A stretch of 33,919 nucleotides of DNA from a virus (Duplodnaviria; Heunggongvirae; Uroviricota; Caudoviricetes): IMG/VR virus record IMGVR_UViG_2579778797_000012, one strand, 5' to 3'. Of the stretch, positions 5,605-27,776 are shown piece by piece. The notes under the pieces were generated by a model. That model did not search any database. It had not been told where the DNA came from and saw only the letters and a list, made by a program, of their open reading frames with translations. Every line of letters begins with the position of its first letter. Position 1 is the stretch's first letter. Both the position numbers and the translations under genes were made by a program.

Positions 5605-8031
5605 ATGTCCAAAAATGAACGAATGGTGGGCATCAGCCGCAGAACACTCGTTAAATCTACCGCGATAGGTTCTCTGGCGCTGGCTGCAGGCGGTTTTTCT
5701 TTGCCGTTTACCCTGCGCAGTGCAGCAGCAGCGGTACAACAGGCCCGCGAAAAAGTGGTCTGGGGTGCCTGTTCCGTCAACTGTGGTAGCCGCTGTGCAC
5801 TTCGTCTACATGTTAAAGATAATGAAGTGACCTGGGTGGAAACTGACAATACCGGCAGCGATGAGTACGGCAACCATCAGGTACGCGCCTGTTTGCGCGG
5901 TCGCTCCATCCGCCGGCGTATTAATCATCCCGATCGCTTGAATTACCCAATGAAACGCGTGGGTAAACGCGGTGAAGGCAAATTCGAACGGATTAGCTGG
6001 GATGAAGCCCTGGATACTATCGCCAGTAGCCTGAAAAAAACCGTCGAACAATATGGCAATGAGGCTGTATATATTCAGTACTCTTCGGGGATTGTTGGCG
6101 GCAATATGACCCGCTCTTCGCCATCAGCCTCGGCGGTCAAACGCCTGATGAACTGCTACGGCGGTTCACTCAATCAGTATGGCTCCTACAGCACCGCGCA
6201 AATTTCCTGTGCCATGCCCTACACCTACGGCAGTAATGATGGCAACAGCACCACGGATATTGAAAACAGCAAGCTGGTCGTGATGTTTGGTAACAACCCG
6301 GCAGAAACCCGCATGAGCGGCGGTGGCATCACTTATCTTCTTGAAAAAGCGCGCGAGAAATCGAACGCCAAAATGATTGTTATCGATCCGCGATATACCG
6401 ATACGGCTGCTGGTCGTGAAGATGAATGGCTTCCTATTCGCCCGGGCACCGATGCCGCGCTGGTTGCGGGGATTGCCTGGGTATTGATTAACGAAAATCT
6501 CGTTGATCAACCTTTTCTCGATAAATACTGCGTCGGCTATGACGAAAAAACCTTACCCGCAGATGCACCCAAAAATGGTCACTATAAAGCCTATATTCTT
6601 GGTGAAGGTGACGATAAAACAGCGAAAACGCCGCAGTGGGCTTCGCAAATTACCGGTATCCCGGAGGACCGTATCATCAAACTGGCGCGTGAAATTGGCA
6701 CAGCAAAACCCGCTTATATCTGCCAGGGCTGGGGGCCACAACGCCAGGCAAACGGCGAACTGACTGCACGCGCTATTGCTATGTTACCTATTTTGACGGG
6801 CAATGTCGGCATCAGCGGCGGAAATAGTGGCGCGCGTGAATCGACCTATACCATTACCATAGAACGCCTGCCGGTGCTGGATAATCCGGTCAAAACGTCA
6901 ATCTCCTGCTTCAGCTGGACAGATGCTATCGATCATGGTCCGCAAATGACGGCAATCCGCGACGGCGTCCGCGGCAAAGATAAACTGGATGTGCCCATTA
7001 AGTTCATCTGGAACTACGCGGGAAATACCCTCGTTAATCAGCATTCTGACATCAACAAAACGCATGAAATTCTGCAGGACGAATCGAAATGCGAAATGAT
7101 TGTGGTCATCGAAAACTTTATGACCTCATCGGCAAAATATGCCGACATTCTGCTGCCAGACCTGATGACCGTTGAGCAGGAAGATATTATTCCTAACGAC
7201 TACGCCGGTAACATGGGATATCTCATTTTCCTCCAGCCTGTCACCAGCGAAAAATTCGAACGCAAACCGATTTACTGGATCCTGAGTGAAGTCGCGAAAC
7301 GTCTTGGACCTGACGTCTATCAAAAGTTCACAGAAGGTCGCACGCAGGAACAATGGTTACAACATCTGTACGCCAAAATGCTTGCCAAAGATCCGGCGTT
7401 ACCGTCTTACGACGAACTGAAAAAAATGGGTATCTATAAGCGTAAAGATCCCAATGGCCATTTTGTCGCCTACAAAGCATTTCGTGACGACCCCGAGGCA
7501 AATCCACTTAAAACGCCTTCCGGTAAGATTGAAATTTATTCCAGCAGGCTGGCGGAAATTGCCCGTACCTGGGAACTGGAAAAAGATGAAGTGATAAGCC
7601 CATTGCCAGTTTATGCCTCAACCTTTGAAGGCTGGAACTCCCCTGAACGTAGAACCTTCCCACTGCAACTGTTTGGTTTCCATTACAAATCCCGTACTCA
7701 CTCGACCTACGGCAATATTGATCTCCTGAAGGCTGCCTGCCGTCAGGAGGTGTGGATCAACCCTATAGATGCGCAGAAACGTGGGATTGCCAACGGCGAT
7801 ATGGTGCGGGTGTTTAACCATCGTGGCGAAGTTCGGCTACCAGCCAAAGTAACACCACGTATTCTCCCTGGAGTTAGCGCTATGGGCCAGGGAGCCTGGC
7901 ACGAGGCCAATATGTCTGGCGATAAAATCGACCATGGCGGCTGTGTGAATACGCTAACCACTCTGCGCCCTTCACCACTGGCGAAGGGAAACCCGCAGCA
8001 CACTAATCTGGTCGAGATCGAAAAAATATAA
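5605..8031 (+). CDS. ynfE: YnfE, Tat-exported DMSO-reductase-family molybdoenzyme catalytic subunit (putative selenate reductase)
   Basis: 808-aa ORF with a twin-arginine signal (SRRTLVKSTAIGSLALAAG), a Cys-rich N-terminal cluster (CSVNCGSRC) and full-length similarity to DmsA-type subunits. Confidence 0.9.
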   Translation: MSKNERMVGISRRTLVKSTAIGSLALAAGGFSLPFTLRSAAAAVQQAREKVVWGACSVNCGSRCALRLHVKDNEVTWVETDNTGSDEYGNHQVRACLRGRSIRRRINHPDRLNYPMKRVGKRGEGKFERISWDEALDTIASSLKKTVEQYGNEAVYIQYSSGIVGGNMTRSSPSASAVKRLMNCYGGSLNQYGSYSTAQISCAMPYTYGSNDGNSTTDIENSKLVVMFGNNPAETRMSGGGITYLLEKAREKSNAKMIVIDPRYTDTAAGREDEWLPIRPGTDAALVAGIAWVLINENLVDQPFLDKYCVGYDEKTLPADAPKNGHYKAYILGEGDDKTAKTPQWASQITGIPEDRIIKLAREIGTAKPAYICQGWGPQRQANGELTARAIAMLPILTGNVGISGGNSGARESTYTITIERLPVLDNPVKTSISCFSWTDAIDHGPQMTAIRDGVRGKDKLDVPIKFIWNYAGNTLVNQHSDINKTHEILQDESKCEMIVVIENFMTSSAKYADILLPDLMTVEQEDIIPNDYAGNMGYLIFLQPVTSEKFERKPIYWILSEVAKRLGPDVYQKFTEGRTQEQWLQHLYAKMLAKDPALPSYDELKKMGIYKRKDPNGHFVAYKAFRDDPEANPLKTPSGKIEIYSSRLAEIARTWELEKDEVISPLPVYASTFEGWNSPERRTFPLQLFGFHYKSRTHSTYGNIDLLKAACRQEVWINPIDAQKRGIANGDMVRVFNHRGEVRLPAKVTPRILPGVSAMGQGAWHEANMSGDKIDHGGCVNTLTTLRPSPLAKGNPQHTNLVEIEKI

Positions 8032-8091
8032 CCCACGACAACCATAAATTCTGGCATGACATTTTGTTTGAAAAGCAATAAGTGAGTAATG

Positions 8092-10515
8092 ATGAAAATC
8101 CATACCACAGAGGCGCTCATGAAGGCTGAAATCAGCCGTAGAAGTCTGATGAAAACCTCCGCACTTGGCAGTCTTGCGCTGGCAAGCAGTGCTTTCACTC
8201 TGCCATTTTCCCAAATGGTCCGGGCGGCAGAGGCTCCGGTAGAAGAGAAAGCGGTCTGGAGTTCCTGCACCGTTAACTGCGGGAGCCGCTGTCTGTTACG
8301 TTTGCATGTGAAAGATGACACCGTGTACTGGGTGGAGTCTGATACGACAGGTGACGACGTCTACGGTAATCATCAGGTTCGAGCGTGTTTACGCGGGCGC
8401 TCTATCCGCCGACGGATGAATCATCCTGATAGGTTGAAATATCCCATGAAGCGCGTCGGCAAGCGCGGTGAAGGTAAATTTGAACGGATAAGTTGGGACG
8501 AAGCCCTGGATACCATCAGTGATAATCTTCGGCGGATCCTGAAAGATTACGGCAATGAGGCTGTACATGTCCTGTACGGAACAGGCGTAGATGGCGGAAA
8601 CATCACCAACTCAAACGTCCCGTACCGTCTGATGAACTCTTGCGGTGGTTTTCTCAGTCGCTATGGCAGCTACAGTACCGCACAGATCAGTGCCGCAATG
8701 AGTTATATGTTCGGTGCCAATGATGGCAACAGCCCGGATGATATCGCCAATACGAAACTGGTCGTTATGTTCGGAAATAACCCGGCAGAAACGCGGATGA
8801 GCGGCGGTGGTGTCACTTACTACGTCGAGCAAGCCCGCGAACGTTCAAACGCACGCATGATCGTCATCGATCCACGTTATAACGACACTGCTGCCGGGCG
8901 TGAAGATGAATGGCTGCCCATTCGCCCTGGCACCGATGGCGCACTGGCCTGTGCGATTGCCTGGGTACTGATTACTGAAAACATGGTCGATCAGCCATTT
9001 CTCGACAAATATTGTGTTGGTTACGATGAAAAAACGCTGCCCGCCAACGCACCACGTAACGCGCATTATAAAGCCTATATTCTGGGCGAAGGGCCTGACG
9101 GCATAGCTAAAACGCCGGAATGGGCAGCAAAAATCACCAGCATCCCGGCAGAAAAAATTATCCAGTTGGCACGAGAGATCGGTTCAGCAAAACCTGCTTA
9201 TATTTGTCAGGGTTGGGGGCCACAACGACATTCCAACGGCGAGCAAACATCCCGCGCTATTGCCATGCTTTCCGTTCTCACCGGCAACGTCGGCATAAAC
9301 GGCGGCAACTCAGGCGTACGCGAAGGTAGCTGGGATCTGGGGGTAGAATGGTTCCCGATGCTCGAGAATCCTGTTAAAACGCAGATTTCCGTCTTTACAT
9401 GGACAGATGCCATCGACCATGGTACGGAAATGACCGCGACCCGTGATGGTGTTCGTGGAAAAGAAAAACTGGATGTCCCCATCAAGTTTTTATGGTGCTA
9501 CGCCAGTAACACATTGATCAATCAACATGGCGACATCAATCACACCCATGAGGTGCTTCAGGATGACAGCAAGTGCGAGATGATTGTTGGCATTGACCAC
9601 TTCATGACGGCCTCGGCTAAGTATTGCGATATCCTGTTGCCCGACCTGATGCCAACAGAGCAAGAAGACCTTATCTCTCATGAATCTGCAGGGAATATGG
9701 GCTATGTGATCCTCGCCCAACCCGCAACCTCAGCAAAATTTGAACGCAAACCCATCTACTGGATGCTGAGTGAAGTCGCCAAACGCTTAGGACCAGACGT
9801 TTATCAAACCTTTACTGAAGGTCGCAGTCAGCATGAATGGATCAAATATCTCCATGCGAAAACGAAGGAACGTAACCCTGAGATGCCCGACTACGAGGAG
9901 ATGAAAACGACCGGGATCTTTAAGAAAAAATGCCCGGAAGAACACTACGTCGCTTTCCGCGCATTCCGTGAAGATCCACAGGCAAACCCGTTGAAAACAC
10001 CTTCGGGGAAAATCGAAATTTATTCTGAACGACTGGCGAAGATTGCAGATACCTGGGAATTGAAAAAAGATGAAATTATTCATCCCCTTCCTGCGTATAC
10101 CCCAGGTTTTGATGGCTGGGACGATCCCCTGCGGAAAACCTATCCACTGCAGTTAACGGGCTTCCATTACAAAGCGCGTACCCACTCCAGCTACGGCAAT
10201 ATTGATGTGTTACAGCAGGCCTGCCCACAAGAGGTGTGGATCAACCCCATTGATGCTCAGGCACGCGGTATCCGTCATGGCGATACCGTGCGGGTATTTA
10301 ACAATAATGGAGAAATGCTGATTGCCGCAAAAGTGACTCCGCGTATTCTGCCTGGCGTTACCGCCATCGGGCAAGGTGCGTGGCTTAAAGCGGATATGTT
10401 TGGTGACCGGGTCGATCACGGCGGCAGTATCAATATTCTGACCTCTCACCGCCCTTCACCGCTGGCAAAGGGAAACCCGTCGCACAGCAATCTTGTCCAG
10501 ATCGAAAAGGTTTAA
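8092..10515 (+). CDS. ynfF: YnfF, Tat-exported DMSO-reductase-family molybdoenzyme catalytic subunit (paralog of ynfE)
   Basis: 807 aa from the second Met. Twin-arginine signal (SRRSLMKTSALGSLALA), CTVNCGSRC cluster, collinear with YnfE throughout. Confidence 0.9.
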   Translation: MKIHTTEALMKAEISRRSLMKTSALGSLALASSAFTLPFSQMVRAAEAPVEEKAVWSSCTVNCGSRCLLRLHVKDDTVYWVESDTTGDDVYGNHQVRACLRGRSIRRRMNHPDRLKYPMKRVGKRGEGKFERISWDEALDTISDNLRRILKDYGNEAVHVLYGTGVDGGNITNSNVPYRLMNSCGGFLSRYGSYSTAQISAAMSYMFGANDGNSPDDIANTKLVVMFGNNPAETRMSGGGVTYYVEQARERSNARMIVIDPRYNDTAAGREDEWLPIRPGTDGALACAIAWVLITENMVDQPFLDKYCVGYDEKTLPANAPRNAHYKAYILGEGPDGIAKTPEWAAKITSIPAEKIIQLAREIGSAKPAYICQGWGPQRHSNGEQTSRAIAMLSVLTGNVGINGGNSGVREGSWDLGVEWFPMLENPVKTQISVFTWTDAIDHGTEMTATRDGVRGKEKLDVPIKFLWCYASNTLINQHGDINHTHEVLQDDSKCEMIVGIDHFMTASAKYCDILLPDLMPTEQEDLISHESAGNMGYVILAQPATSAKFERKPIYWMLSEVAKRLGPDVYQTFTEGRSQHEWIKYLHAKTKERNPEMPDYEEMKTTGIFKKKCPEEHYVAFRAFREDPQANPLKTPSGKIEIYSERLAKIADTWELKKDEIIHPLPAYTPGFDGWDDPLRKTYPLQLTGFHYKARTHSSYGNIDVLQQACPQEVWINPIDAQARGIRHGDTVRVFNNNGEMLIAAKVTPRILPGVTAIGQGAWLKADMFGDRVDHGGSINILTSHRPSPLAKGNPSHSNLVQIEKV

Positions 10516-10525
10516 GGAGTAGCCC

Positions 10526-10639
10526 ATGACCACACAATATGGATTTTTTATCGATTCCAGCCGCTGTACTGGCTGTAAAACCTGCGAACTGGCGTGCAAA
10601 GATTTTAAAGTTGGTTACGTATCGTTTAAAATCAATTAG
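10526..10639 (+). pseudogene. ynfG: ynfG (4Fe-4S ferredoxin-type subunit), 5' fragment only; similarity ends about 10609
   Basis: MTTQYGFFIDSSRCTGCKTCELACKDFK matches the YnfG/DmsB N-terminus. The frame then reads VGYVSFKIN-stop instead of the expected DLGPEVSFRRIYEY..., and no remainder of ynfG is present downstream in the window. Confidence 0.85.
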
Positions 10640-10683
10640 ATAGCCCGTCATTTCTGCGCTCACACGTCCCAACATTGAAAAAC

Positions 10684-10717
10684 ATGCAAAGCTTTGTAAG
10701 CCGATGCAAAGCTTTGT
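10684..10717. promoter_or_regulatory. Two copies of ATGCAAAGCTTTGT (10684-10697, 10704-10717), each containing the 10-bp palindrome CAAAGCTTTG; candidate protein-binding sites
   Basis: Exact 14-bp direct repeat spaced 20 bp start to start, in non-coding DNA about 75 bp inside the ynfG junction. Confidence 0.35.
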
Positions 10718-11054
10718 GTGTCTCACTTTTGTCCCAATACCAATCCGAATCCACCCTTTGTCATCATTGAGAAATGGCAAGGAAGAAAAGGATGTTACTG
10801 CACGATTTGACAAATCCGCCAGAGCTATCGCATACTGATCGCACTGAACAAATAAGCGGTCTCCGCACCCGATAGCTTTGCGGCTTTTTTATGCCTGCAA
10901 TTTGGCATAGTTACATCCGTACAAAGGTCGGGTGGAGAGGCGTAATACAACACCCGCAAGGGGAATATGCCCAGAGCTTCTTATTTGGCTCAGTTGACAC
11001 CCGACCGCCAGCTACTAACTGGCGGTTATAAACTAAACAAATAAGGAGGTCATC

Positions 11055-11339
11055 ATGACCAGTCAACTCATCCCCGTATTCAACGGTTCTATCTCAAACC
11101 AAGCAGCCCTTCTATGCAATGCTCGCAATCTACACGCTTTCCTTGGGGTTGGTAAACGCTTTGCATCGTGGATAACAGAACGTATTGCTGAATATGGTTT
11201 CGTTGAAAATCAGGACTATATGATTGCTTCCCAAATTCGGGAAGCAAAAGGTAGAGGCGGTCACAACCGCAAGGAATACCACCTCACCCTCGACACAGCC
11301 AAAGAGCTTGCGATGGTTGACGACTGCGTCCAATACTGA
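11055..11339 (+). CDS. Short AntA/AntB-type antirepressor-domain protein (94 aa), paralog of the next gene
   Basis: MTSQLIPVFNGSISNQAALLCNARNLHAFLGVGKRFASWITERIAEYGFVENQDY... resembles the AntA N-terminal domain. Strong RBS (AAGGAGG, 11043-11049). The C-terminus (YHLTLDTAKELAMV) is shared with the downstream paralog. Confidence 0.5.
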   Translation: MTSQLIPVFNGSISNQAALLCNARNLHAFLGVGKRFASWITERIAEYGFVENQDYMIASQIREAKGRGGHNRKEYHLTLDTAKELAMVDDCVQY

Positions 11340-11588
11340 CTATACTCCGCGCCGAGGCCTCGAAAACCTCCCAAAAGCGGATTAAACCAACCCCGTCAGT
11401 GTTGGATTTTTTATGCCTGTTATTCAGTGATAGCACAGTGTGCGGTCACATCCCCGATCAATGTCGGGAGGGCGACGAATACAACACCCGCAAGGGGAAT
11501 AAGTCCGCGGTATCTTTTGGGCCGTTTCGAGCCTCCCGGCACCACATCTTGTGGTGGCATTTCTCGAAAAAAGCCAAAGGAGGTCATC

Positions 11589-27044: not shown

Positions 27045-27776
27045 TCAGAATTTCAGGCCAATACCTACAACAACCCCGCTCGTGCGCCAGTCACCAGATC
27101 CGGAGCTTTCATACGCGACATCCATAGCAACACTTTCATTCAGGTTAAATTGTGCACCAGCAGCCCATGCAAGTGCTGTTTTTTTCGTACTGTTGCTTTC
27201 AGAAAATCCACCGGTACTGTTAATGTTGTCCTTAATTTTCAGGTCAGCGGTAACTTTAGCTACGCCCATACCAGCCATTGCATACACACTGAGGTATTCG
27301 TTAAACCGCCACGAAGGACCCGCTAACAGGCTCCAGTAATTCGCTCTGATATCTGTTCTTCCTGAAGCTGCCGGATTTTTAACCTCTCTGGATTCATCTC
27401 CTGGGTTAATATCAATAAATGCCTGCGCATTAGTCATAGAACGCGCCCATGTAAAAGATGTTATAACACCAATCTCATCCGTTATCTCATAACGATACCT
27501 GATGCTCATCCCCTGAGGAGATTTGCCTTTGCCATCATGCCCCCGGACAGAAGCATCTGCATATTCGCCTGAATTGAAGTAGTGTCTGTTTGTAAAACGG
27601 TTAAAAGTATCAAGATTATAAAGACTTAAATCCTTAACAAAATTGTTCAGTCCAGAGAGCTGAAGATGAGCGTATCCGAAAGAAACTGTACTGTCACCTT
27701 GTGCTGCACAGGCAGGGGCTGCTACAAAACTCATCACAAAAGTTGTGCACGCAAAAATAATTCTGGTATGTTTCAT
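27045..27776 (-). CDS. lom: Lom/Ail/PagC-family outer-membrane beta-barrel protein
   Basis: Signal peptide (MKHTRIIFACTTFVMSFVAAPACAAQG) and a C-terminal ...YESSGSGDWRTSGVVVGIGLKF closely resembling the lambda Lom / Ail-family terminal strand. Confidence 0.75.
   Translation of the reverse strand: MKHTRIIFACTTFVMSFVAAPACAAQGDSTVSFGYAHLQLSGLNNFVKDLSLYNLDTFNRFTNRHYFNSGEYADASVRGHDGKGKSPQGMSIRYRYEITDEIGVITSFTWARSMTNAQAFIDINPGDESREVKNPAASGRTDIRANYWSLLAGPSWRFNEYLSVYAMAGMGVAKVTADLKIKDNINSTGGFSESNSTKKTALAWAAGAQFNLNESVAMDVAYESSGSGDWRTSGVVVGIGLKF

Follow-up and report, generated by a model that had tools for sequence, protein, structure and literature searches.

The two identical 14-mers at positions 10684–10717 of the window, which is the 33,919-nucleotide stretch of viral DNA analysed here, are probably the strongest units of an array that is bound and bent by the phage excisionase (Xis) for excision. 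The array would fill a spacer of constant length in the int-distal arm of a P22-type attachment site, at the edge of a lambdoid prophage that interrupts the host gene ynfG. The feature is real and non-random, yet ordinary and largely understood, and it connects the sequence at the edge of ynfG prophages, including Shigella and E. coli Shiga-toxin phages, with a well-studied recombination architecture.

The 14-mer ATGCAAAGCTTTGT is found twice on the + strand of the window, at 10684–10697 and 10704–10717, with starts 20 bp apart, and both copies contain the perfect palindrome CAAAGCTTTG (at 10687 and 10707). The first-pass annotation, which had described two identical palindrome-bearing 14-mers 20 bp apart, is therefore correct on this point, as the copies starting at 10684 and 10704 are exact. 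A third copy is absent from the window, even with up to two mismatches allowed. The complete element was searched for further copies, as that annotation had proposed, using the full prophage copy of E. coli 06-00048 (NZ_CP015229.1, loci L001 and L002), and no other site with fewer than three mismatches was observed on either strand of the same prophage. ATGCAAAGCTTTGT is the only exact 14-mer of the window that is repeated within 60 bp. Any exact 14-mer pair within 60 bp was obtained in 2 of 300 shuffles of the window, and such a pair is thus rare by chance. The palindromes are unremarkable alone, as 33 palindromes of 10 bases are observed in the window against an expectation of ∼33.

The repeats lie close to the junction between the bacterial chromosome and the prophage. 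Two ynfE/ynfF-type reductase genes (5605–10515) are followed, from 10526, by the 28 initial codons of ynfG, which are labelled '4Fe-4S binding protein, missing C-terminus' in RefSeq. The ynfG frame is broken after TTTAAAG, and the sequence continues into a lambdoid prophage, whose late region, on the − strand, is of a short-tailed, Stx-phage-like type. This junction was found in 55 complete genomes of E. coli. The far end of the prophage contains a Xis-like ORF and a 387-aa tyrosine integrase, and the remaining 3′ part of ynfG is located there, at the end opposite to the 5′ part. TTTAAAG is the sole sequence common to both junctions (window 10604–10610 and L002 17718–17724; L002 is the locus of the NZ_CP015229.1 prophage copy that covers the int end). 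On the bacterial sides, AAGAT (window 10599–10603) and ATCTT (L002 17725–17729) form 5-bp inverted half-sites around a 7-bp overlap, and the uninterrupted ynfG target, as read from the two junctions only, would be AAGAT-TTTAAAG-ATCTT. The repeats are positioned 74–107 bp into the prophage from the crossover, within attR and on the arm away from int, which bears out the earlier placement just inside the ynfG junction. The repeat-bearing arm corresponds to the P arm of lambda. The features of the arm, together with the int-side sites at the other end of the prophage, are listed below; arm-type sites are putative, and the matching P22 positions refer to L003, the P22 locus used for hexamer coordinates.

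10526–10610, + strand: 5′ stub of ynfG (MTTQYGFFIDSSRCTGCKTCELACKDFK) up to the crossover, from the ORF list and RefSeq annotation
10599–10615, no strand assigned: attR core, comprising AAGAT (10599–10603), the overlap TTTAAAG (10604–10610) and the phage half-site TTGGT (10611–10615)
10625–10742, + strand: homology to the int-distal attachment-site arm of P22, 82–85% identity over 118 bp
10630–10642, + strand: IHF-like site AATCAATTAGATA, a partial match to the IHF consensus WATCAANNNNTTR
10666–10671, + strand: core-proximal arm-type site, GTCCCA (P22 L003 1642)
10672–10719, + strand: spacer and proposed Xis array (ACATTGAAAA, ACATGCAAAG, CTTTGTAAGC, CGATGCAAAG, CTTTGTGT)
10682–10721, no strand assigned: inverted repeat made of both copies and their flanks, which forms a hairpin of 17 pairs around a 6-nt loop
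10684–10697, + strand: 14-mer copy 1, whose left half plus the C before it makes up unit 2, CATGCAAAG
10704–10717, + strand: 14-mer copy 2, whose left half plus the G before it makes up unit 4, GATGCAAAG
10720–10725, + strand: distal arm-type site 1, GTCTCA (P22 L003 1696)
10731–10736, + strand: distal arm-type site 2, GTCCCA (P22 L003 1707)
L002 17615: int-side arm-type site 1 (P22 L003 1477)
L002 17626: int-side arm-type site 2 (P22 L003 1488)

At the int end, the 3′ part of ynfG is joined in frame to a GTG start codon contributed by phage DNA (L002 17706–18257). The resulting ORF is annotated in RefSeq as a 183-aa 'DMSO/selenate family reductase complex B subunit', and its product is without the N-terminal residues, including the cysteines, that are encoded in the 5′ stub.

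The arm is homologous to that of P22 and its relatives. The 82–85% identity of 10625–10742 holds for P22, ST64T, phage L, epsilon34 and many others. The recombination proteins, read from NZ_CP015229.1 and not from the window, are also of the P22 type: the prophage Int shares 71% identity with P22 Int, and the prophage Xis, encoded at 2169274–2169645 of NZ_CP015229.1, shares 72% with P22 Xis across 116 aa and has a Pfam HTH_17 match. A 236-bp stretch of P22 (L003 1477–1712) carries five GTCCCA hexamers, all oriented alike: two are located within the 3′ end of int, and the other three belong to the int-distal arm. This ∼236-bp span, which includes the P22 equivalent of the spacer at ∼2938–2981 of AF217253, agrees with the size of 260 bp given for the P22 attachment site in PMC4111918. 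The arm-type hexamers are spaced by 11, 54 and 11 bp in both P22 and this phage; the distal hexamers (10720–10736) start 11 bp apart, 54 and 65 bp past the proximal site. By coordinate arithmetic, the distance from int-side site 2 to the proximal site is 154 bp in P22 as well as in the reconstructed attachment site. Because the GTCCCA/GTCTCA hexamers are present on both arms and are conserved, we infer that they are integrase arm-type sites. The 14-mers were also considered as integrase arm-type sites and were rejected because they are absent from the int-proximal arm, whereas GTCCCA is found on both arms.

Adjacency to the core, homology of Int and Xis, hexamer spacing and DNA homology together identify the segment, at the level of sequence comparison, as a P22-type attachment-site arm. 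Of the two roles suggested by the first-pass annotation, that of recombination-related sites inherited from the attachment region is supported by the homology to the P22 int-distal arm and by arm-type sites at conserved spacing; the other role, that of operators, is considered below with the units. P22 has twin ATGCAAAG units between its arm sites, as here, but they are the imperfect palindromes CAAAGCCTTG and CAAAGATTTG, whereas both are perfect in this prophage. P22 also has GTCCCA at the distal position where this phage has its one GTCTCA, and it integrates at a tRNA gene, in contrast to the TTTAAAG core inside ynfG; unlike P22, the host phage of the repeats is a Stx-phage-like podovirus. 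AATCAATTAGATA at 10630–10642 may be an IHF site, and a (T/A)CAA-N4-(T/A)TA motif is retained at the same position in related arms.

The closest relatives of the arm are found in phages that use the same target. ynfG is a published integration site of the Stx phages 75/02 Stx and POCJ13 (PMC5447701), and the Stx1a prophage of strain RM10410 is also integrated in ynfG (PMC10562709). The arms of 75/02 Stx and POCJ13 are 100% identical to the window over 10611–10800, and that of PhiR5_2 is 100% identical from 10627 to 10800; the PhiR5_2 Int is 99.5% identical to the Int of the prophage studied. These three phages do not differ from the prophage at the site but carry different cargo genes. No description of the arm sites in 75/02 Stx, POCJ13 or PhiR5_2 was found, and their GenBank records annotate nothing there.

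The conserved element of the spacer was revealed by more distant arms. Related arms were searched for in viral contigs with an anchor on the proximal arm site (CTCACANGTCCCA...) and not on the repeats. The search yielded 83 distinct sequences, nearly all of which are related arms, and the context GCGCTCACACGTCCCA of the proximal GTCCCA is kept in almost all of the 83. Viral contigs were also searched with the Int protein, but the prophage fragments obtained stop immediately behind int and contain no arms. In 75 of the 78 measurable arms, the next hexamer starts exactly 54 bp after the proximal one, which leaves a 48-bp spacer. Despite this constant length, the spacer sequences fall into at least 15 types at <75% identity. 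In 15 divergent spacer types, the unit (G/C)ATGnAAA is arranged four times head-to-tail, once every 10 bp. A occupancy has an autocorrelation of 0.66 at lag 10, a value reached at any lag from 5 to 15 by 2 of 20000 column permutations. In the stacked units, AA is invariant or nearly so, position 2 is G or C, and A, T and G at positions 3, 4 and 5 have frequencies of 0.72, 0.82 and 0.57, respectively. In the window, units 2 and 4, which lie in the 14-mers, are full matches, and units 1 and 3 are weaker. Judged from the aligned spacers, the palindromes are specific to this lineage, and the conserved feature is the asymmetric unit. A further consensus unit, GATGCAAAG, is located in the int-side arm at L002 17648–17656, within the last int codons and ∼65 bp from the core; neither P22 nor epsilon34 conserves this unit, which may be a chance occurrence.

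These comparisons bear on the proposal that the repeats are dyad-symmetric sites of a cooperatively acting dimer. Since the family unit is asymmetric and head-to-tail and the P22 units are imperfect palindromes, a symmetric-dimer reading is unsupported. It is very improbable that the repeats are operators of a dimeric regulator, such as a LuxR-like or AntA-like protein or a repressor, or sites for IHF, Fis or CII. In favour of such sites, the perfect 10-bp palindromes of the window are 20 bp apart, CAAAGCTTTG agrees with the IHF consensus in its CAA-N4-TTG portion, and the − strand reads TTGC-N6-TTAC-N6-TTGC at a place where the epsilon34 record annotates a 'putative CII-binding site'. However, the dyad symmetry within the unit is not conserved in P22 or in the family, and the motif occurs nowhere else in the element. 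The suggestion of operators for LuxR-like or AntA-like proteins also finds no promoter-like site overlapping the repeats; the scan detected none at 10650–10760, and the nearest are at 10604–10632, on both strands across the core, and at 10807–10836. The TTGC-N6-TTGC pattern of the epsilon34 'CII' site is the complement of the GCAA period, and the non-hairpin spacer types carry GAAA, not GCAA, which argues against CII. A CII-activated promoter was rejected separately, as the middle tetrad is TTAC rather than TTGC and no −10-like element is present at the CII-promoter distance (∼12 nt).

The arrangement of the units is the one usual for a directionality-factor array. The typical targets of recombination directionality factors are direct repeats spaced by one helical turn, and the repeats of the spacer are head-to-tail at approximately that interval. 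Direct repeats one turn apart, their location in the int-distal arm and the adjoining arm sites together point to an Xis array, with Xis as the protein that would read the units. For P22 Xis, specific binding to att DNA and bending of that DNA are reported in PMC7498355. Upon induction, the P22-like Xis, an HTH_17 protein, would bind cooperatively along one face of the helix, starting at the two strong units and then filling the weaker ones between and beside them. The arm would be sharply bent, and Int bound at the flanking GTCYCA arm sites could then reach the core TTTAAAG, so that excision would be favoured and re-integration disfavoured. Four (G/C)ATGnAAA units in a fixed 48-bp slot would provide a comparative definition of the P22-family excisionase unit, and this reading predicts which bases control excision.

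A similar order of binding is known from the X1, X1.5 and X2 sites of lambda, which the proposed filling by Xis resembles. The lambda Xis sites consist of two strong sites 20 bp apart with a weaker one between them; Xis binds them cooperatively and bends the DNA. The X1-X1.5-X2 sites in the P arm are likewise direct repeats in the int-distal arm beside an Int arm-type site. Lambda differs in that its Xis family and motif are unrelated to those here and the order of sites in the arm is not the same; in addition, no evidence of a Fis site was found in this arm. Details of the lambda Xis sites are in part those given in PMC7498355.

Covariation of Xis and spacer could be compared in only 12 loci that contain both a P22-like Xis and the arm. 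Near-identical helix-turn-helix regions of Xis (L253 and L300) are paired with quite different spacers, in which only the degenerate unit is kept. Similar Xis proteins with differing spacers imply either that recognition is degenerate or that the spacer mainly provides phased A-tract curvature. The second case, in its strict form, is a passive spacer with phased A-tracts, intrinsic curvature and fixed length, in which no protein reads the 14-mers specifically; it would be compatible with the fixed 48 bp, with AAA every 10 bp in all spacer types and with the combination of one Xis type with differing spacer sequences. This is nevertheless improbable, as the unit keeps A, T and G at positions 3–5 and G or C at position 2, none of which is needed for curvature alone, and the specific binding and bending reported for P22 Xis also speaks against it.

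The same DNA may have a second role, as an RNA hairpin or terminator. The long hairpin, like the perfect palindromes, is a feature of this lineage in particular. The inverted repeat is predicted to fold as RNA with −22.7 kcal/mol (z −4.6) on the + strand, which is int-sense, and with −16.7 kcal/mol on the − strand. In the excised phage, the hairpin lies downstream of int and beyond the core, and integration parts it from int. The same geometry is seen for the tI/sib hairpin of lambda, which is also located downstream of int beyond the core and is parted from int upon integration. It is conceivable, although rather unlikely, that the pair is mainly such an RNA hairpin, that is, a terminator or a lambda sib/tI-like retroregulator at the 3′ end of the int transcript. 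The strong fold is terminator-like in the scan, the − strand has a UUUUU run directly after the stem, and a terminator is annotated at the corresponding position in the GenBank entries for both phage L and epsilon34. Compensatory pairs are present in the hairpin-type P22 arms, in which one pair is CG in 9, GC in 7 and AU in 1, and in the P22-type arms of this hairpin subclass 86.5% of cells are paired, compared with 17–51% when the partners are slid. Outside P22-type phages, the element follows, in the same orientation, integrase genes unrelated to P22 Int at 3–30 nt, and it also lies 306 nt after lambda int, just past tI, although the match to lambda DNA is weak (E=7).

Several properties do not fit a terminator as the main function. 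A stable hairpin is present, but an int-sense U tract adjacent to the stem is not: the U run on the + strand begins 5 nt past the stem, which is followed by CUCACUUUUG, and is non-canonical, in contrast to lambda tI/sib. The structure is not conserved across homologous arms, as more than half of the 15 spacer types lack a significant fold (z ∼0 or higher) and form no hairpin whatever in the 48-bp slot. Among 76 variants, no consistent strand preference is observed, with mean values of −17.7 on the + strand and −19.2 on the − strand. A sample taken downstream of IntS-type genes displays mostly one-sided, pair-breaking changes, and versions collapsed to a single unit occur. The hairpin is missing in many P22-type arms, which is a further difference from lambda tI/sib, and in lambda the tI/sib hairpin and the phage's own copy of the repeat, which sits just past tI, are separate elements. 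The only match to an Rfam family at the repeats was a spurious one to mir-19.

The twin inverted repeat is distributed beyond P22-type attachment sites. Its consensus is AGCACAAAGCCTTGCAA(T/A)CC(A/G)(G/A)TGCAAAGCTTTGTGTGTCTCAGTTTTGTCTCA, and at least 95 distinct versions are present in viral contigs; it has no Rfam entry. The repeat and a nearby upstream integrase-sized ORF are almost always in the same orientation. It is found 3–30 nt after the stop codon of integrase-sized ORFs that are mostly of the IntS type; behind P22-type int genes the distance is 136 nt and spans the core. Behind IntS-type genes, the twin repeat is usually followed by GTCTCA-N5-GTCTCA, and the inverted repeat with this distal GTCTCA pair thus also occurs behind non-P22 integrase genes, away from attachment sites. 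In E. coli K-12, a copy is located between intS and yfdG of KplE1 (L089 3001–3050). IntS and P22 Int are essentially unrelated, with E = 0.03 when compared directly, and the attachment site of KplE1 is upstream of intS (PMC2951348). A P22-type Xis cannot explain this copy, given its position between intS and yfdG. In mEp234, the repeat is found beside a fossil intS 3′ end (L087 2001–2047). The lambda copy noted above (L085 1501–1537, ∼lambda 27473–27506) lies just beyond the tI/sib hairpin, and the record of phage DN1 annotates an 'antisense RNA' across it. Further hairpins are observed at the ends of IntS-type genes. IntS-type int genes terminate in a perfect inverted repeat of 8 bp whose loop contains the stop codon, AAGGTGGA-GTGA-TCCACCTT (∼L089 2955–2985 and related sequences), and other IntS-type members have a hairpin resembling lambda tI (CATTAGCGCAAG...GCGCTAATTTTTT) immediately behind int.

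The repeat is kept in approximately half of the 103 sequences that form an unbiased sample downstream of IntS-type genes, and the changes in these copies, as stated above, are mostly one-sided, with some copies reduced to one unit. The IntS-associated copies could be remnants of P22-type arms left after swaps of the integrase module, or they could be a portable hairpin with a function of its own. A broader, tentative reading, to which we give a low probability, is that the repeat and the two GTCTCA sites form a portable int-distal module shared by phages of the P22, IntS (KplE1 and the mEp234 fossil) and lambda types, which would act in a terminator- or sib-like manner on int transcripts and serve in addition as an excisionase array in P22-type phages. 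If so, one sequence would carry two overlapping codes. The presence of the repeat behind unrelated integrase genes may interest phage geneticists, and the ordinary nature of the finding is unchanged by it.

Beyond the arm, the prophage sequence contains other features in the direction of the AntA-like ORFs. A promoter-like site, TTGACA-18-CATACT, is located at 10807–10836, with a weak hairpin and a T run near 10863–10893. A candidate small RNA at 10838–10895 was rejected, as it folds no better than shuffled sequence. The segment 10798–10925 is 92–100% identical in many Stx1/Stx2 phages that use other integration sites. Two full-length matches to sRNA-Xcc1 (RF02221) are present on the + strand at 10926–11014 and 11463–11548, with 69.1 and 73.4 bits, respectively, against a gathering score of 53. 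They lie just upstream of AntA-like ORFs (starts at 11055 and ∼11586), in the manner of a 5′ leader, and the first match has a predicted fold of −35.8 kcal/mol (z −3.2).
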